This document shows, one piece after another, positions 3,093 through 25,015 of a stretch of DNA of 64,000 nucleotides (position 1 is its first letter; each line of letters begins with the position of its first letter). The position numbers were made by a program, and so were the translations under genes. This stretch comes from Parcubacteria group bacterium Gr01-1014_8 (GTDB taxonomy: Bacteria; Patescibacteriota; Minisyncoccia; Phycocordibacterales; UBA2100), in NCBI GenBank assembly GCA_007376385.1, contig VMGC01000001.1, positions 224,001-288,000 on the forward strand, in the 5' to 3' direction. The notes under the pieces were generated by a model that searched no databases, had not been told where the DNA came from, and was given only the letters and a program-made list of their open reading frames with translations.

Positions 3093-3830
3093 ATGCGCGT
3101 TGGCTCGGTCGGTATCATTGGGTACGGTAATTTTGGCGCGTTTTTACACGTGCTATTGAAGCGTTTTGCGCCGCAGATCACCGTCCGCGTCTTCACGCCA
3201 GAAAAGAAACCAGATGGCGCCACATTCTTTTCGATGGAAGAAGCGGCTGTGTCAGACGTTGTTGTGCTTGCTGTTCCTATCAGCGAATTTGAGAACGTAT
3301 TGGAGGATGTATTGCCACACGTCAAAGAGACCAGTGTCATCGTGGATGTCGCCACCGTGAAAATGCATACCGCAGATGTGCTCAAGCGGCTCGCGCCACA
3401 TAGGTCATATATTGCAACTCATCCGATATTCGGGCCCGAGAGCTATGCAAAACGGGAGGGGAACGTATCCGGTTTCAGAGTCGTCATTACGGACCATACC
3501 CTGTCAAAAGATGTGTACAAGGCTACTGTATCGTTCTTAAGGAAAACAGGTTTTGCGGTCATTGAAGTGAGCGCGGATGAACATGATAAACGCTTGGCAC
3601 AAACGCTCTTCTTGACACATTTTATCGGGCAAACCATCACTGAAGCAGAATTTGACAGAACTGACATCGACTCGGTTTCATTCGGATTTCTGATGGATGC
3701 TGTAGAGAGCGTTAAGCACGACAAGCAATTATTTCAAGATGTCTATCGCTACAACCCGCACTGCAAGGCGACATTGGACCGGTTTGAAAAGGCAGAAGCA
3801 AACGTGCGCCGGATGCTCGATAAAAGCTAG
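3093..3830 (+). CDS. tyrA: Prephenate/arogenate dehydrogenase (TyrA family)
   Basis: N-terminal NAD-binding GIIGYGNFGAFL. Size and aromatic-pathway context fit the TyrA family. Confidence 0.6.
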   Translation: MRVGSVGIIGYGNFGAFLHVLLKRFAPQITVRVFTPEKKPDGATFFSMEEAAVSDVVVLAVPISEFENVLEDVLPHVKETSVIVDVATVKMHTADVLKRLAPHRSYIATHPIFGPESYAKREGNVSGFRVVITDHTLSKDVYKATVSFLRKTGFAVIEVSADEHDKRLAQTLFLTHFIGQTITEAEFDRTDIDSVSFGFLMDAVESVKHDKQLFQDVYRYNPHCKATLDRFEKAEANVRRMLDKS

Positions 3831-4969
3831 AGGTATTCGTCAATATTGTCTACGTTGATGCAAATACTGGCGCGCACATAGCGCTCACCGTTCGTCCCAT
3901 ATGCACTGCCAGGTGTAAAGAGCACTTGTTTTTCTTTGAGCAAGTCCATGCAAAAAGTCTCTGAATCTTTTGCCGAGTCAGGTATTTTCGCCCAAATATA
4001 GAGGCTTCCTTTCGGGATTTCCAAGATGAGCCCCAGTTTTTTCATTTTCTCAGCGATGACATCACGGCGTTTTTGATAGGAAGAAAGCATTGCCGCGTGC
4101 CACTTTTCGTCACGATTATTCAGGGCGTATGCGCCGAGGAGTTGCAAGGGAAGCGACATGCCGGAATCCATTTGCGACTTCACCTTCTGCATAGCCGCAA
4201 TGATGTCTTTATTTCCAACTATCCAGCCCATCCGGAAACCTGCAAACGAGAACGTCTTTGAAAATGATCCTATTTCGACGCAATGTTCTTTTGCGCCTGC
4301 AACCTGAAGAATACTCGGCGCGACGAACCCATCGAATGTTATTTCTGCGTATGCGTTGTCATAAATAATTGGGAGGTCGTGCTTTTTTGAGAACGCCGTG
4401 ATTTCTTTGAGCTCATCGAGCGATGCAACGGCTCCGGTCGGGTTTCCGGGGAAATTCACCCACATGTATTTTGTTTTGTTCGTGATTTGCCTTGCAACAG
4501 AATCAAACATCGGCTTGAAATCATGTTCTGGCAGCAAGTCGTAATAATTGGAAGTAACTCCGAACATTGGACCTGGTTCGCTGAAAGGGGGATATCCAGG
4601 GTTCGGCGCCAGTACGTTGTCGCCTTCGTCTGCCAAGGCAAGAGGTAAGTGGCTAATCCCATCTTTACCGCCCAGTAGCGGCAGCACTTCATCATCCTCG
4701 AGCACAACATCGAATCGTTTCTTGTACCATGCTCGCACTGCATCATTGAATTCTTTGACGCCTTTATATCCGGGGTAGAGATGCGCTTTTGGGTCCCGGA
4801 CAAACTCAAAGAATTTCTGGATATACTTCTCACTCGGTGGAAAATCTGGGCTTCCCGGACCGAAGTTCAAGACTTTTCTCGCAGTCGCTTTTTCAGTTTC
4901 TACTACAGCTCTATTTAGTCTCGAAAAGATGTATTCAGGAAACTTCTCGACACGGTTCGCGATTCTCAT
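3827..4969 (-). CDS. Class I/II PLP-dependent aminotransferase (candidate aromatic/aspartate aminotransferase)
   Basis: SFSKTFSFAGFRMGW PLP-lysine region and NPGNPTG-like motif (NFPGNPTG). It overlaps the chorismate mutase gene upstream on the same strand. Confidence 0.75.
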   Translation of the reverse strand: MRIANRVEKFPEYIFSRLNRAVVETEKATARKVLNFGPGSPDFPPSEKYIQKFFEFVRDPKAHLYPGYKGVKEFNDAVRAWYKKRFDVVLEDDEVLPLLGGKDGISHLPLALADEGDNVLAPNPGYPPFSEPGPMFGVTSNYYDLLPEHDFKPMFDSVARQITNKTKYMWVNFPGNPTGAVASLDELKEITAFSKKHDLPIIYDNAYAEITFDGFVAPSILQVAGAKEHCVEIGSFSKTFSFAGFRMGWIVGNKDIIAAMQKVKSQMDSGMSLPLQLLGAYALNNRDEKWHAAMLSSYQKRRDVIAEKMKKLGLILEIPKGSLYIWAKIPDSAKDSETFCMDLLKEKQVLFTPGSAYGTNGERYVRASICINVDNIDEYL

Positions 4970-15619: not shown

Positions 15620-16340
15620 GTCCTGAACTACCGACCTCGGTGGTTTTTTTGACCCTCCTGTGAGGAGGGACAGAAGGCTTGAACTTTGACAACTGAATAT
15701 GAAAAATTGTACGCAAAACCAAAAAAGAAATTGGTAAGTAAAATTGTTGCCGGCGCTCGCTCGGAATTGAAAATTTATTTTCATTTCGCTCGCTCGCATG
15801 GGCAATAAGAATTCTTGTTGTTCTCAAGTTAGGAACAATAAGACACACACAAAAGCAAGAAAACAGAAAATACATATTGAGGTTCCAGGAGGATCTCATG
15901 TGTAAGTAAACAGTAATAACGAGACAAAAGATCCCCCAAGGGGACTGCGACTTTCTACGATTCAAATGAATCGTGAAAGTCGGGAGATATACATTCTTTT
16001 GTTTCGTCCATCCTAGAGATATTGAAGCAATTCAAATTCTTGAAAGTGGTGTAAAAACCATTTTTACTTAGAGTTTGATCCTAGCTCAGGGTGAATGCTG
16101 GCGGTATGGATAAGGCATGCAAGTCGAATGGGTTAGACCCATGGCAGACGAGGTAGTAACAGGTAGGTACGTCCCCGGAAGTCGGGCATAACCAGCCGAA
16201 AGGTTGGATAATTCCCGATGGTCTCGCAAGAGTAAAGATTTATCGCTTCCGGAGCGGCCTGCTTTGTATCAGCTTGTTGGTGAGGTAACGGCTCACCAAG
16301 GCTATGACGCATAGGGGACCTGAGAGGGTGACCCCCACCG

Positions 16341-16377
<37 letters not shown>

Positions 16378-16891
16378 TGCAGCCGAGAATATTCGACAAT
16401 GGGCGAAAGCCTGATCGAGCGATACCGCGTGGTGGATGAAGCGCTTCGGCGCGTAAACACCTTTTATGAGGGAAGAAATTTTGACGGTACCTCATGAATA
16501 AGGGGCTCCTAACTCTGTGCCAGCAGGAGCGGTAATACAGAGGCCCCAAGCATTACCCGGAATTACTGGGCGTAAAGGGTGCGTAGGTGGTCATATTAGT
16601 CGCCTGTTAAAACCCACGGCTCAACTGTGGAACCGCGGGCGAAACGGTATGACTAGAGAGAGTGAGAGGTGAATGGAACTCATGGTGTAGGGGTGAAATC
16701 CGTTGATATCATGGGGAACACCGAAAGCGAAGGCAATTCACTGGCACTTTTCTGACACTCAAGCACGAAAGCGTGGGTAGCGAACGGGATTAGATACCCC
16801 GGTAGTCCACGCCCTAAACGATGATCGCTGGATTTGGGGAGTATCGACCCTCTCCGAGTCGAAGCTAACGCGTTAAGCGATCCGCCTGGGT

Positions 16892-16923
<32 letters not shown>

Positions 16924-17390
16924 AGACGGGGGCTTGCACAAGTGGTGGAGCGTGTGGCTCAATTCGTCGCTAAGCGAAGAACCTTACCAGGGCTAGAAAT
17001 CCAGCTGCATACTTTGGGAAACCTTAGTAGCCTTCGAGGGTGCTGGACAGGTGATGCATGGCTGTCGTCAGTTCGTGGTTTGAATCGTTCCCTTCAGTGG
17101 GGTAACGAACGCAACCCTCGTTGCCTGTTATATTTGTCAGGCGAGACTGCCCCCTCACGGGGGAGGAAGGTGAGGATGACGCCAAGTCAGCATGTCCCTC
17201 TGATGTCCTGGGCTGCACACGCGCTACAATCGCCGTTACAACGAGGCGCAACGTCGTAAGACCGAGCAAATCTTTCAAAAGCGGCGCCAGTTCGGATTGA
17301 GGTCTGCAACCCGACCTCATGAAGCCGGAATCACTAGTAATCGCGGGTCAGCCACACCGCGGTGAATACGTTCTCAAGCCTTGTACTCAC

Positions 17391-18234
17391 AATAAAAGCG
17401 CACAGCAGTGTACATATCTATGCGGTTAAAATCCGCACCTCTCTTTCGTACAGAGAGCGTAGCAGAAGGATAGTTGTTATCCGCGAGGATGATAATGGAG
17501 GATCCTAATGCAAAGAGCAGCCATTTCGCACAAAAGCCGACCGACCTGTCAATGGGTGGTGAGGATAGGGAAGGTCCTAGAAAGGCAAGAAAATGGATGC
17601 CTAGAACAGATACGCACATAACCTGTGGAGATCTGACGCTGTTATCCCAAAGATGGGATATGATGAATCTGACGCAGCGTCAGAAGTCAGCTGAGTCATA
17701 GTATTTGCAGATATGCAAAAAAGGACTCACTCAAAGCAAAATCTTAGTCCAGATTATGTTGTTGGACTCGTAGATGGTGAAGGAAGCTTTACTGTCTACG
17801 TAAGAAATCCAGACATAGAGAAAAAAGTCGCTCGAAGAGTGGTTGTAGAGCCAAAATTCTACATAAAACTAATCGAACGCGACAAAGATATTCTCTATGC
17901 ACTTCGAGATTTCTTCGGATGTGGAAGTATTTACTTCCAAAAAGATAATCGTCCGAATCATCAACATTGCTATCGTTACGAGGTCTTCCGGTGGGAAGAA
18001 CTTCAAACGATAATCATTCCGTTCTTCAAGCGGCACGTTCTCAAATTCGCGTCAAAACGGCACGACTTTGAAGTGTTTTGCATGATGATGGAGCTTCTCA
18101 AAAAAGAAGCACATCGAACGGAAAAAGGACTACGAGAGTTGTTTAAGTTGAAACAACGCATGCATTGAGCTCGCGTAGTGCGGGAAATCCGCTCGCTACG
18201 TGGGAACATCAATTCTTAGATTCAAGAAGATAAT
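17391..18234 (+). mobile_element. Intervening sequence (intron) in the 16S rRNA near E. coli position ~1390-1400, carrying a homing endonuclease gene
   Basis: The 16S collinearity breaks after CCTTGTACTCAC (17390) and resumes at CGCCCGTCAACTC (18235). The 844-nt insert contains the LAGLIDADG ORF. Confidence 0.6.
17713..18168 (+). CDS. LAGLIDADG homing endonuclease (single-motif type), intron-encoded
   Basis: 151 aa. VVGLVDGEGSF is a LAGLIDADG motif. The gene lies entirely inside the 16S insertion. Confidence 0.8.
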   Translation: MQKRTHSKQNLSPDYVVGLVDGEGSFTVYVRNPDIEKKVARRVVVEPKFYIKLIERDKDILYALRDFFGCGSIYFQKDNRPNHQHCYRYEVFRWEELQTIIIPFFKRHVLKFASKRHDFEVFCMMMELLKKEAHRTEKGLRELFKLKQRMH

Positions 18235-19113: not shown

Positions 19114-20778
19114 GTGATATGCTTTTTGTATATGACTGACGGGTTGAAAGAATGGAAGAAGCCGGAAGTAACAGACATTTCTTCTGAAGAGCCAGTAAAG
19201 GAGAAAGCGGAGCTGACAGAAGAATTAAAAGATCATATCAGGCAAGACTTGGAATTGGATACGTACGACACACCAGAGAAAGCGAAAAAACGCCGTACGC
19301 AATTGGCAATATTTTATGGTACGAACGTGCAGCAGATTGGGGCAGTTTCTGCGTATAAAAAGCGCGATGGTAAATTAAGCTTAGAGGCAAAATTTGAAAA
19401 ACTACCTCCCGCTCCACCGAAAATCGAAACAGAGTATGACAATTTTACAAAGCGTGCATGGCGGCAGAAAATCTTCAATGCTATAAAGAACGATTTTACT
19501 CAAGAGCAGCTGCAACGTGCTCGAGTCCTATGTTTTCCCGGACAAGCTTTACAAGAGGTGACCGAAGTTTATTTGCCACTAGGTATTCGACCAGAAAATA
19601 TTGTGTGTATTGAGAAGGATCCAGATGTTGTGAAAACCATGAGAAAAAACCTCAAGGCACTCATCCAAACGAAGGTGCTGAGCCAATCTGTCTCCATTTT
19701 CGAAGGAAGTGTCGAGGAATTTTTACAGAGCTCACATGAGCCCGTAACCATCGCTTCATTCGATCTTTTGGGGCCTATGTACGAGGGATTTTTGATGAGT
19801 ATTCCCAATCTCCGTGTCGCGGATAAATTCATGGTTATTACGAATTGTTTGCAGCGCAGGGAACAGAAAAATCAGCAAGATGCATTGAAGTCAATGACGT
19901 CAGCAACGCGTGCGGTAGGGAGCGCACTCGATGCGCTCCAGAATTATAAGCACATTCTCCCGGGTGTTGGCAGCACATCTTTCGACGTGAGTCACCTCAT
20001 GGCTCAAATTGCAAGGGCAAATCAACAACCGATAGACCTTTCAGAAGCGCGAGATGAAGGTGCGGCTATCACGATGATAGCTTTTCTCTTAGGAGGTCAA
20101 GCCAAACAGTCACTCGATGATCTCTACTCTGAAGCTAGCATCGTTCCACCGCGGTTCAAGTCAGATGACGACCGACAAGCTTTTGAAGATCACACGCTCG
20201 GAACACTGATACGTGGGATTGAACAATTAGTTATAAACTATTCTAGAGTGTATTCGCGATTGTCGCTGAAATCCGACGTAAACATATTGGAAAACACCCT
20301 TAGTAGAAGCGATACCGGAAAACATGGATTTTTATTGCACTTTCTCACCGTGGCGACGCATTGCATGAGCGATCTTACGATTTGCGATTTACAACGGTAT
20401 GAATATTCAAGCGAGAAATCCGGGTCTCCATATCAGACGGATGTGATCACGTTGTTTGATTGGAAGCGGAATTTCCGCGAGAAGCATCGGGAAGCATATC
20501 ATTTCATCCGAGATTGTTTTCGAGTGATCGGTCAACACTCGGTAGATCAGATTTCCTTCCAGTTTAAAAAAGGCATCACGGTTTTACCGAAAAACTATGC
20601 TGGCAGCAACGCAAAGATAGATTTAACGGTGAACGTAAACGGCAAGCAGTTTCTCAGTATATCGTTCAGCAAACTCCTTGAGCTAGTGGCTTACTTTAGG
20701 AAAACGGAGAAAATCGTTACAAAAGGAAAAATACCACAGGACTTTTTGGAACGGCCGCGAATCAAGATAGAAACATAG
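19114..20778 (+). CDS. Hypothetical protein (554 aa); N-terminal ~240 aa resemble a Rossmann-fold SAM methyltransferase
   Basis: VLCFPGQALQEVTEVYL (motif-I-like, compare Erm/KsgA hhEIGPGxGxLT), IVCIEKDPDVV (motif II hhhhExD) and FEGSVEEF (compare Erm/KsgA IHGDALKF). The C-terminal 300 aa are unrecognised. The gene lies in the AT-richer insert downstream of the 16S. Confidence 0.5.
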   Translation: MICFLYMTDGLKEWKKPEVTDISSEEPVKEKAELTEELKDHIRQDLELDTYDTPEKAKKRRTQLAIFYGTNVQQIGAVSAYKKRDGKLSLEAKFEKLPPAPPKIETEYDNFTKRAWRQKIFNAIKNDFTQEQLQRARVLCFPGQALQEVTEVYLPLGIRPENIVCIEKDPDVVKTMRKNLKALIQTKVLSQSVSIFEGSVEEFLQSSHEPVTIASFDLLGPMYEGFLMSIPNLRVADKFMVITNCLQRREQKNQQDALKSMTSATRAVGSALDALQNYKHILPGVGSTSFDVSHLMAQIARANQQPIDLSEARDEGAAITMIAFLLGGQAKQSLDDLYSEASIVPPRFKSDDDRQAFEDHTLGTLIRGIEQLVINYSRVYSRLSLKSDVNILENTLSRSDTGKHGFLLHFLTVATHCMSDLTICDLQRYEYSSEKSGSPYQTDVITLFDWKRNFREKHREAYHFIRDCFRVIGQHSVDQISFQFKKGITVLPKNYAGSNAKIDLTVNVNGKQFLSISFSKLLELVAYFRKTEKIVTKGKIPQDFLERPRIKIET

Positions 20779-20811: not shown

Positions 20812-20937
20812 AATGGACGGAACAAAAGAGTGTCCCGACGCGCGAGAGCGGTCGGGATCCCGACCGAAGCGTCGGGATGTATTGAAGAAAATGCTACAAC
20901 CAAAAACGCCGACTCAACATGAGCACGGCGTTTTTTT
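20812..20937 (+). repeat. Intergenic repeat element copy B (22-mer + GC hairpins + terminator CAAAAACGCCGACTCAACATGAGCACGGCGTTTTTTT)
   Basis: Direct repeat of copy A, separated from it by ~2.3 kb that contains the two unknown ORFs. Confidence 0.6.
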
Positions 20938-21657: not shown

Positions 21658-21729
21658 GCGCGTTTAGCTCAGTGGTAGAGCATCCCTCTGATAAGGGGAA
21701 GGCCGTAGGTTCAATCCCTACAACGCGCA
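21658..21729 (+). tRNA. tRNA-Ile (anticodon GAT)
   Basis: GCGCGTT acceptor, AGCTCAGTGGTAGAGC D-arm, anticodon loop CTGATAA (GAT), T-arm GGTTCAATCC, 3' acceptor AACGCGC plus A. CCA is not encoded. Confidence 0.85.
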
Positions 21730-23752: not shown

Positions 23753-25015
23753 TTACGTGACTCTTACAGCCTTAGCTGATTTCATCGCTTTTTCTCGCGC
23801 TTTTCTTACATCCTTTCCAATTGCAAGAGCAACTCCCATACGGCGGTGGTCAGGGGAAGACGGTTTTCCGAAAATGCGTACCCACGTGCCTGGGGTTTTG
23901 AGCGCTTTTTCGACGCCAATATATACGGGATTATCCGTTTTCATGTTCGCGAGAATTGCGACACTTGCGCCTGGACAGCACGGAATTTCAGCCTGCCTGC
24001 CGCGCCCGCGGCGCAGGCAGGGAATCGGCAGACCAAGAATTGCACGCACATGCAATTCCATCTCGCTCATATTCTGCGAGACCATCGTGACCATGCCGGT
24101 GTCATGCGGGCGAGGGGACACTTCCGAGAACCAAACCATATCGCCCTTGACGAATAGCTCTACGCCAAAAATGCCGCGGCCTGCTTTTCTGCCTGCCTGC
24201 CGCGACGCACGCGGCGCAGGCAGGCAAAGTTCGTTCACGACTTTTTTTGCAATGTGCTGCGCCCGGGCAAGCGCTTTTTTCGACATCGGATGCGGTTGCC
24301 AGCTTTCGCGATAATCACCATCGATCTGAATATGCCCGACAGGCGCACAGAAACTTATCCCGCCCGCATGGCGAACGGTAAGCAACGTAATCTCATAATC
24401 AAAATTTATCTTTCCCTCGACAATAACTTTTCCAGTTTTTCCGCGTCCTGCCTCCATCGCATGCTCCCACGCCTTCTTTAATCCCGATGGATTTTTGACT
24501 TGAGACTGTCCATGACCGGACGATGACATAGTCGGCTTGATAAAGCAGGGGAATCCAACAGCCTCGGCTCCCGCTTCAAGCTCTTCCAAACTTCCCGCAA
24601 ACCGATACGGCGACGTCGGCAACTTCAACGTCTCGGCTGCAAGTTGCCGAATGCCTTGTCTGTCCATCGTAAGACGCGTCGCGCGCGCCGTCGGGATTAC
24701 GGTCCAACCTTCTTTTTCCAGTTCGACGAGCGTATCCGTCGCGATTGCTTCGATCTCGGGGACGATAAAATCCGGCTTCTCTTGTTCGACTATTTTTCGG
24801 ATCATCGTCCCGTCTCGCATGTTAAACACGTGCGACCGATGCGCCACCTGCATCGCCGGCGCGTTCTCGTATCTATCGCACGCAATCACCTCCACCCCCA
24901 ACCGCATCGTCTCGATAACGACCTCCTTTCCAAGTTCACCGCTGCCGAGCAGGAGTATTCTGGTAGCTGATGGTTTCAGGGGTGTTCCGAATCTCGTCAT
25001 GACCCAGAATAACAT
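23753..25015 (-). CDS. purT: Formate-dependent phosphoribosylglycinamide formyltransferase (PurT, ATP-grasp)
   Basis: [17 protein letters not shown]...[17 protein letters not shown]...[15 protein letters not shown] is collinear with PurT. Two short Arg/Gly/Ala-rich insertions sit in otherwise conserved stretches (see the repeat features below). Confidence 0.85.
23991..24021. repeat. GC-rich palindromic mini-element inserted in-frame in purT (copy 1)
   Basis: GCCTGCCTGCCGCG-CC-CGCGGCGCAGGCAGG is a near-perfect inverted repeat. On the purT strand it encodes [10 protein letters not shown], which conserved PurT segments lack. Confidence 0.55.
24190..24226. repeat. GC-rich palindromic mini-element inserted in-frame in purT (copy 2)
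   Basis: TGCCTGCCTGCCGCG-ACGCA-CGCGGCGCAGGCAGGCA has the same arms as copy 1. It is read in a different frame and encodes [11 protein letters not shown] inside purT. Confidence 0.55.

Follow-up and report, generated by a model that had tools for sequence, protein, structure and literature searches.

The purT gene of Parcubacteria group bacterium Gr01-1014_8 carries two short GC-rich palindromic elements in frame within its coding sequence. It is located on contig VMGC01000001.1, inside a stretch of 64,000 nucleotides (positions 224,001 to 288,000) that was analysed as a whole and is referred to below as the window. The elements are 33 nt (copy A) and 30 nt (copy B) long and probably represent non-autonomous 'solo-stem' members, devoid of an open reading frame (ORF), of a widespread family of hairpin-bounded cassettes with a GIY-YIG nuclease domain. 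The purT hairpin consists of the left arm and the right arm of such a cassette, the nuclease ORF being replaced by a loop of 2-5 nt. The hairpin family is not lineage-specific and occurs both with the nuclease domain (full-length cassettes) and without it (mini copies). Loci outside the window are designated by L numbers.

Hairpin elements inside purT

The protein encoded by purT has a full-length match in E. coli PurT (1eyz, E = 3.4e-135) and is 100% identical to the entry P0001, 'phosphoribosylglycinamide formyltransferase 2 [Parcubacteria group bacterium Gr01-1014_8]'. Read along the + strand, copy A has the order CCTGCCTGC-CGCG-ACGCA-CGCG-GC-GCAGGCAGG (33 nt) and copy B the order CCTGCCTGC-CGCG-CC-CGCG-GC-GCAGGCAGG (30 nt). 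Both possess exactly the same arms and differ in the apical loop only, which comprises 5 nt in copy A versus 2 nt in copy B. The flanks of the copies are AATTTCAG / GAATCGGC and CTTTTCTG / CAAAGTTC. Folded as single-stranded DNA, the 33-mer reaches -19.8 kcal/mol (z = -4.5 to -5.2) and the 30-mer -13.5 to -13.9 kcal/mol (z = -2.4). A search of the window for the 13-mer arms with up to two mismatches (<=2) returns 8 matches, versus 1.24 +/- 1.23 in shuffled sequences (0 of 100 shuffles reach 8); the four matches that remain besides the two hairpins are singletons with two mismatches and form no hairpin.

According to the original prediction, made from the letters of the window alone, a GC-rich palindrome is inserted twice in frame in purT, its copies are read in different frames of the element, and the added residues are missing from E. 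coli PurT. The observation of two in-frame palindromes is confirmed in every checkable respect. In codon-level alignments of orthologs copy A is a clean 33-nt insertion between Cys259 and Arg271, read as residues 260-270, and copy B, aligned with the orthologs of L002 and L003, a clean 30-nt insertion inside the Pro327 codon (C^CT), read as residues 328-337. Copy B is read in the +1 frame; copy A uses a different one, and its orientation and reading frame match those of full-length GIY-YIG cassette arms (LPAPR...RQAG). Both sites are gaps in 1eyz and in most of 28 close orthologs (~395 aa). The expected position of the inserts in loops agrees with an AlphaFold2 model of PurT (mean pLDDT 81.5), in which the residues of copy A form coil between helix 241-258 and strand 276-285 (pLDDT < 50 at 264-270), and those of copy B coil between helix 313-322 and strand 344-351 (pLDDT < 50 at 330-335). 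Most likely, the inserts are translated as passive loops of 10-11 residues, rich in Arg, Gly, Ala and Pro and with no role of their own. Coordinates are given in Table 1.

Table 1. Positions of purT and of the parts of its two hairpin elements in the window.
Feature	Position	Strand	Basis
purT, formate-dependent phosphoribosylglycinamide formyltransferase, 415 aa from ATG at 25000	23753..25000	minus	ORF listing
Copy A, 33-nt hairpin element inside purT	24192..24224	minus	sequence and ortholog alignment
Copy A, lower stem	24192-24200 / 24216-24224		+ strand numbering
Copy A, upper stem	24201-24204 / 24210-24213		+ strand numbering
Copy A, loop	24205-24209		+ strand numbering
Copy A, 2-nt GC bulge	24214-24215		+ strand numbering
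Copy B, 30-nt hairpin element inside purT	23992..24021	minus	sequence and ortholog alignment
Copy B, lower stem	23992-24000 / 24013-24021		+ strand numbering
Copy B, upper stem	24001-24004 / 24007-24010		+ strand numbering
Copy B, loop	24005-24006		+ strand numbering
Copy B, GC bulge	24011-24012		+ strand numbering

Full-length GIY-YIG cassettes

Clustering of ORFs around about 240 hairpin loci exposed the full-length form in an HsdR-like ORF of L232. Its hairpin arms are separated by ~290 nt, and between them lies a GIY-YIG domain (PF01541, E = 3.2e-16) without a start or stop of its own, so that the peptide reads ...LPAPRPG-[GIY-YIG]-SAARQAG.... The same layout is found in L259 and L262, and in L283 a 20-nt palindrome lies directly upstream of an in-frame GIY-YIG domain. 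Metagenomes were searched with an alignment of the cassette domains, and the best 80 loci of 214 relatives were evaluated; 70 of 105 GIY-YIG hits, in most of these 80 loci, possess both arms. The metagenome cassettes are in frame, with hundreds of host codons on each side, and span 279-303 nt from arm to arm, a multiple of three in all 45 of 45 distinct cassettes.

A cassette comprises a left arm (CCTGCCTGC-GC-CGCG...), the GIY-YIG domain (~85 aa, ~250 nt), which is of the small type found in UPF0213 and Slx1-like proteins, and a right arm (...CGCG-GCAGGCAGG). In single-stranded DNA the two arms can pair over ~20 bp, each being half of one long stem. At synonymous third positions (CGN Arg / GGN Gly), which are ~250 nt apart, the arms co-vary (n=21: A-T 10, G-C 6, C-G 2, G-T 1, mismatch 2), which indicates selection for single-strand pairing and not for the peptide. 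Host genes encode LeuRS, UvrB, RNase R, MsrB, HsdR, HsdM and HsdS and, furthermore, a SNF2 helicase, methylases of the DUF1156 and Eco57I types and a dehydratase subunit. The cassette of MsrB is inserted between GHVFDD and GP of the conserved GHVFDDGP...RYCINS motif. Several of the host genes also carry mini copies. Pfam, applied to the cassette and to ten host proteins, assigns the inserts to GIY-YIG (PF01541) only and detects no Hint or intein domain.

Some cassette loci and related sequences show further features. The left arm of the L259 cassette, upstream of the GIY-YIG match at 3747-3986 (minus), contains one extra CTGC unit (CCTGCCTGCCTGC), and the upstream HsdR frame is out of register; this could reflect a tetranucleotide-slippage switch, a pseudogene or faulty assembly. 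In-frame GIY-YIG domains of a second set (L322, L329, L332, L337, L340, L342 and L346-L350) occur in proteins with the motif RFMTWPVCVQRTGRK and have no CCTGCCTGC arms at all. The DUF1156 methylase-like cassette host of L330 (2545-5889) also contains a DUF559 (Vsr-like nuclease) domain bracketed by a direct peptide repeat, SPSPSDMERGPGGE, which may be another kind of in-frame nuclease cassette. L343 (1438-5202) encodes a leucyl-tRNA synthetase of 1255 aa with a GIY-YIG cassette and internal alpha/beta-hydrolase and NUDIX domains.

Distribution across phyla and viral contigs

Viral contigs were scanned with the pattern CCTGCCTGC-N(0-30)-GCAGGCAGG, and one genome of each species was scanned with a pattern of longer arms, CCTGCCTGCGCCG-N(0-15)-CGGCAGGCAGG. 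The arm pattern is present in at least 120 viral contigs, with sharp length peaks at 18, 20, 30, 33 and 36 nt among the matches listed; the 18-nt class is CCTGCCTGCGCAGGCAGG and the 20-nt class CCTGCCTGCCGGCAGGCAGG. A control palindrome of matched composition occurs in 49 viral contigs in a complete scan, with flat lengths, one 18-mer and two 20-mers.

The longer arm pattern is found at no fewer than 120 genome loci (at least 120) from about twenty phyla. Among the matches listed, Latescibacterota possess several copies per genome, long-read chromosomes included. Further copies in this set belong to Verrucomicrobiota, Kiritimatiellae, Lentisphaerae, Planctomycetota, Bacteroidota, Acidobacteria, Methylomirabilota, delta-, beta- and gamma-proteobacteria, Omnitrophota, WOR-3, Elusimicrobia and Nitrospirae, to the Patescibacteria Kaiserbacteria, Parcubacteria, Kazan and Saccharibacteria, and to the cultured isolates Thiorhodospira sibirica ATCC 700588 and Pelomicrobium sp. 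G1. Copy A is identical at 33/33 positions to a copy of T. sibirica ATCC 700588 (L287). The 30-mer of copy B recurs exactly in the viral contig L042 and in five unrelated genomes (L231, L247, L269, L270 and L283).

The 33-mer has no real DNA match in cultured phages (INPHARED) or plasmids (PLSDB), and the cassette matches only distant stand-alone GIY-YIG proteins in the records of both collections. Rfam contains no family that matches the hairpins or the surrounding loci. In the literature, no paper was found that describes the arm sequences, the cassette family or the mini hairpins, and none on in-frame GIY-YIG cassettes with arms. The original prediction regarded the purT palindromes as undescribed for genomes of this type. 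This stands insofar as no paper was found on in-frame palindromes of the Candidate Phyla Radiation; the elements are, however, not peculiar to such genomes, as the spread over about twenty phyla demonstrates.

In Latescibacterota (L183, L197, L218, L245, L267, L292 and others) the 33-nt hairpin is part of a conserved composite intergenic repeat of ~150 nt, in which an AT-rich second hairpin and a T-run are found as well. This composite looks like a lineage-specific larger repeat with the hairpin as a module.

Hairpin anatomy, length rule and sequence context

The hairpin is built of a 9-bp lower stem (CCTGCCTGC/GCAGGCAGG), a variable upper stem and a short closing loop. A GC bulge of two bases is present on one side only, so the element has an orientation. 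Three pairs of the upper stem are unconstrained in the 36 distinct 33-mers, and these co-vary: one of them is C-G in 17 copies, A-T in 8 and T-A in 1. The co-variation score is 0.122, versus 0.054 +/- 0.011 in shuffles (0 of 500 reach 0.122).

Length is divisible by three in 117 of 125 genome copies among the matches listed, with size classes of 33 nt (56 copies), 30 nt (38), 39 nt (14) and 36 nt (6). All six frames are free of stop codons in 89% of the distinct copies, versus 74.5% expected for random interiors. The base following the element is C in 70% of copies, and the base preceding it is rarely T (A/G bias). In low-GC genomes, 13 of 52 copies are located in clear long ORFs, 12 in ambiguous ORFs and 27 outside long ORFs. 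The element is not confined to genes, yet it is built to sit within them. Copies often cluster in one gene, as in purT (two), in murC of L005 (two) and in HsdR of L298 (three minis and a cassette).

Direct repeats flank a few copies (L023, L045, L095) and are missing from most; a target-site duplication was rejected, since these repeats accompany few copies only and neither purT site. On some viral contigs copies lie between heptamer tandem repeats or direct repeats of 8-14 nt (L013 10596-11761, L023 1660-1679, L045 8396-8415). Several other candidates for the nature of the element were likewise rejected: a sequencing adaptor or artefact, because the elements preserve the frame and are found in isolates, in long-read chromosomes and in assemblies made independently; CRISPR repeats, because each locus has a single copy; domain V of group II introns, which has a similar bulged-hairpin layout but whose AGC triad is missing here; and a pair of Type IIS restriction sites, a mere numerical coincidence.

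Copies in related Kaiserbacteria

Ortholog DNA was compared for eight purT loci from relatives. The Kaiserbacteria purT of L001 possesses at site B the same 30-mer as copy B, and in the apical loop of this copy a second, diverged hairpin of 27 nt (CTACCCGCGCGCCGCGCGCAGGCGGGC) is nested. Nucleotide identity between the purT genes of L001 and the window amounts to 74.9%, and to 45% at third codon positions, while the site-B element is identical at 30/30 positions; this implies selection at the DNA level, or recent acquisition or conversion in both lineages. The site-B insert thus occurs unchanged in an independent protein of Kaiserbacteria, which is found on 8 contigs. L003 and L004 possess an 18-nt version (CTGCCTGCGCAGGCAGGC and a variant with one mismatch) at a third purT site, and L006 and L007 contain decayed 30-nt relatives at site B that are interrelated by compensating 1-nt indels. 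Besides purT, a further housekeeping gene has two copies, namely murC of L005 (1359-2651, minus): it contains two in-frame 18-nt copies of CTGCCTGCCGGCAGGCAG (LPAGRQ) at 1490-1509 and 1970-1989, both missing from the L004 ortholog.

None of 120 PurT orthologs contains a cassette. Long PurT orthologs (435-601 aa) were considered as carriers and rejected, their extra length being due to N-terminal over-extensions. A protein search with the domain alignment returned mainly short stand-alone GIY-YIG proteins and fragments and is uninformative on cassettes of Kaiserbacteria.

Other features of the Kaiserbacteria loci concern neighbouring genes. In L004 (2988-3012) and L005 (3547-3573), a GC-rich palindrome of another sequence (GCGGCGCGAC...GTCGCGCCGC) occupies equivalent positions of the MurD-like gene and may represent another coding hairpin family. 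The murA-like genes beside purT encode 487 aa in L003 (2133-3596) and 483 aa in L007 (1795-3246), versus 433-434 aa in the window and the other loci; the longer genes may hold further in-frame inserts. ORFs of LAGLIDADG endonucleases near purT in L001 (7389-8739 and 14482-14817) and L004 (15310-16664) presumably belong to rRNA insertions.

Comparison with known repeats and nucleases

The closest described system is that of the Ssn nucleases and the Ssn-related motifs (SRM). Ssn nucleases (SsnA / NTS-dRS3 in Neisseria; Chenal et al. 2025) are small single-domain GIY-YIG proteins with hairpin repeats of 20-50 nt flanking their own gene, and cut only single-stranded DNA, next to the cognate hairpin repeats; SRM form many solo hairpin copies dispersed in the genome, NTS copies being 2% intragenic, and Rickettsia is rich in SRM repeats (PMC11893778). 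The purT hairpins (30 and 33 nt) fall within this 20-50-nt range of inverted repeats and are asymmetric, with an orientation given by the GC bulge. Both systems have solo copies, and outside the window an IS-like layout, with hairpin repeats on either side of a small GIY-YIG coding sequence, may be common to them as well; the presence of several copies in one gene resembles the clustering of NTS repeats. Arms flank the GIY-YIG domain in L232, L259, L262 and most of the best 80 metagenome loci, where they are half-stems and the domain is part of a host ORF; the window has no such arrangement. The systems differ in that the hairpin sequences are unrelated, that the elements described here are in frame in coding sequences (versus 2% intragenic NTS copies), that their nuclease lacks start and stop codons and forms part of host proteins, and that their arms are nearly invariant across phyla. 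Coding compatibility, the in-frame parent cassette and the near-invariance of the arms distinguish the purT inserts among hairpin repeats linked to small GIY-YIG nucleases.

The original prediction likened the purT palindromes to Rickettsia palindromic elements (RPE), which are in-frame palindromic repeats of various, mutually unrelated housekeeping genes in a reduced genome and apparently compatible with folding (PMC10969869). The likeness holds for dispersed palindromes that are tolerated in frame in a protein-coding gene. Membership in the RPE family does not: RPEs are ~100-150 bp long and limited to Rickettsia, they form ten families by sequence with conserved peptides, and a nuclease cassette has not been described as their parent, whereas the purT copies measure 30-33 nt and elements of their type 18-39 nt, occur in multiple phyla and have a full-length GIY-YIG form. 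Size and lineage thus set them apart. Given the SRM-rich Rickettsia, a deeper link of RPEs to the present family may exist.

Repetitive extragenic palindromic sequences (REP, REPIN) and the REP-associated tyrosine transposases (RAYT) offer another parallel: REPs are imperfect palindromes of 20-40 nt, and the enzyme thought to spread them is encoded by a repeat-flanked gene and is believed to recognise single-stranded hairpins. REPs, however, are extragenic and have a GTAG/GTGG head, which the purT-type elements lack, both copies in the window being inside purT; and their enzyme is an HUH tyrosine transposase (Y1), as opposed to a GIY-YIG protein. Classical miniature inverted-repeat transposable elements (MITE) share the inverted arms and differ in their size (50-500 bp versus 18-39 nt) and in the duplication that is missing at sites A and B.

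Inteins and homing endonucleases resemble the cassettes as nuclease coding sequences that are in frame in conserved genes and missing from close homologs. Unlike inteins, the cassettes have no Hint protein-splicing domain (Pfam); unlike homing endonucleases, which have one cognate site, they occupy many unrelated insertion sites, and they possess hairpin-forming arms and ORF-less derivatives of 18-39 nt. In mitochondria of yeast, GC-rich palindromic clusters or 'byp' elements are short mobile palindromes whose targets, in a compact genome, include coding regions. These byps are organellar, skipped in translation and not limited to multiples of three, and no nuclease cassette shares their arms. 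A GIY-YIG insertion as such was noted earlier in HsdR MCA0838 of Methylococcus capsulatus, where an Slx1-like domain, missing from an 80%-identical homolog, was described as 'very recently inserted' near residue 800; arms, repeats or mobility were not described in this survey (Dunin-Horkawicz et al. 2006; PMC1564403). The site (~residue 800) is the HsdR site occupied in L298-L305.

Probable origin and possible mobility of the hairpins

The same arms at other purT and murC sites, in about twenty phyla and on phage contigs agree with the original prediction of a dispersed, probably mobile palindrome family, an interpretation that is supported in substance and has become far more specific. By analogy with Ssn nucleases and IS200/IS605-REP systems, the GIY-YIG nuclease encoded by the cassettes would recognise the hairpin on single-stranded DNA, for which replication forks, transformation or phage DNA may be the source, and would cut at the base or foot of the hairpin. 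Full-length elements and, in trans, minis could then be excised and re-inserted, or copied by repair. Within a gene, such an insertion would be expected to survive only if its length is a multiple of three, if it is free of stops and if it falls into a permissive surface loop. Odd frames and orientations, sharp size classes, identical copies across phyla and the nested mini argue that the minis travel as minis.

A broader interpretation is conceivable, and we put it forward tentatively, as somewhat less likely than its negation. The elements may constitute a bacterium-wide transposon-like class with a minimal GIY-YIG nuclease as mobility enzyme, acting on hairpins of single-stranded DNA. Full-length copies would be in-frame, non-splicing 'guest domains' in essential and defence genes, and the solo-stems of 18-39 nt would be the smallest mobile elements known, harmless in any frame and spreading between phyla and phages almost unchanged.

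A number of results weigh against the derivation of the purT hairpins from a mobile GIY-YIG cassette family. Neither the 64-kb window nor any of the eight Kaiserbacteria loci contains a GIY-YIG cassette that could supply the nuclease, and screening of the entire window for GC-rich hairpins detects no further family member besides the two copies in one gene. A search of viral contigs likewise gave no full-length cassette. Mobility is indicated indirectly. There is no target-site duplication at purT site A or B, and the flank profile of the family contains no clear target motif beyond the biases for C after and A/G before the element. As a regex, the published SRM consensus HGTCWY N0-2 YYVSBRH N0-5 WNVSBRG N0-2 RNCYNB matches neither strand in the surroundings of copy A or copy B. 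Among solved structures, the UPF0213 proteins 1ywl and 1zg2 are closest to the cassette domain. In low-GC genomes roughly every second copy is outside long ORFs, and the multiple-of-three rule extends to many intergenic copies, so that coding constraint alone does not explain it. The taxonomic spread, finally, is qualitative, since it is based on the at least 120 contigs and at least 120 loci listed.

Among the alternatives, decay in place deserves most attention, though we consider it unlikely. Full cassettes, as invaders akin to homing endonucleases, would once have occupied both purT sites and lost their ORF by deletion between the arms, and the minis would never have moved. A cycle of degeneration is the rule in homing endonuclease genes; moreover, copy A has the exact orientation and frame of cassette arms (LPAPR...SRQAG), and cassettes and minis co-occur in the same host genes. 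Copy B, however, is read in a frame that a cassette could not use for translation and thus did not decay in place from an in-frame cassette, and many copies elsewhere have frames or orientations that bar read-through of the nuclease ORF. Decay also fits poorly with minis that fall into few sharp size classes with intact, co-varying upper stems, with identical 30- and 33-mers at unrelated sites of unrelated phyla, with the absence of cassettes from the 120 PurT orthologs, and with the mini nested in the loop of another mini in L001.

The remaining alternatives are considerably less probable than decay in place. The hairpins might be untranslated, i.e. removed from the mRNA or skipped by ribosomes as in the yeast mitochondrial 'byp' or the T4 gene 60 bypass, in line with stable GC-rich hairpins inside a coding region and with the existence of bypassed, short mobile GC-rich palindromes in mitochondria. 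We regard this as improbable, because multiples of three (117/125 minis among the matches listed, 45/45 cassettes) and the enrichment of stop-free copies would be needless in skipped sequences, and matching take-off and landing codons are not evident at sites A and B. Slightly less credit still is given to REP/REPIN-type repeats spread by RAYT (IS200/IS605 family) or to classical MITEs of a DDE transposon. Size (30-33 nt), the bulged imperfect palindrome and dispersed copies recall REPs, and inverted terminal arms recall MITEs, but no GTAG/GTGG head adjoins the hairpin, target-site duplications are absent, and the sole gene found between the arms, at dozens of loci, is the GIY-YIG domain. A non-exhaustive clustering of neighbour genes at about 240 loci yielded no recurrent transposase, only shared phage genes and the GIY-YIG cassette. 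Lineage-specific loop expansions or functional peptide loops of PurT, palindromic by chance and without any mobile element, would account for the position of both inserts in loops of an intact gene and for the occupation of site B in several ortholog lineages. Such an origin is highly improbable in view of the same nucleotide sequence in other genes, phyla and phage contigs, of reading frames that yield unrelated peptides, of the lack of inserts in most orthologs, and of a 30-mer conserved at 30/30 DNA positions while flanking synonymous sites are saturated. As the window is part of a metagenome-assembled genome, errors of assembly or sequencing at both sites come to mind; their probability is close to nil, given the identical site-B insert in an independent Kaiserbacteria protein on 8 contigs, the family's presence in assemblies of many laboratories, long-read chromosomes and cultured isolates, and the preservation of the reading frame by the inserts.

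Implications

If the purT hairpins are indeed solo-stems of GIY-YIG cassettes, the odd loops of PurT would be visible traces of an unrecognised layer of mobile DNA, made up of hairpins of 18-39 nt whose sequence hardly differs between ultra-small bacteria of groundwater, Latescibacterota, Planctomycetota, Proteobacteria and phage contigs. Its parent cassette would place a nuclease domain in frame inside essential genes without splicing machinery. The Ssn/hairpin-repeat system reported in 2025 would then extend from an extragenic curiosity to a coding-compatible mobile element, the puzzle of 2006, a GIY-YIG domain 'recently inserted' in one HsdR, would be explained, and the palindromic in-frame repeats of the Rickettsia type would gain a concrete candidate enzyme. 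The question whether a GIY-YIG nuclease of minimal size can serve as transposase for single-stranded DNA would become directly testable. Hairpin and cassette inserts inflate and confuse protein annotation in metagenome-assembled genomes, and the family accounts for scattered odd insertions in proteins of uncultivated bacteria, the arm sequence being a simple marker for finding them. Pairs of hairpin and nuclease are also of interest as single-stranded DNA tools.

Other features of the window

A 16S rRNA gene is located at 16063-17422 and is followed by a match to group II intron D1-D4 at 17639-17726. An ORF of 554 aa (19114-20778) precedes an ORF-poor stretch (to 21650), with GC-rich hairpins at 20849, 21314 and 21792. 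Genes for tRNAs are found at 21658 and 30283.

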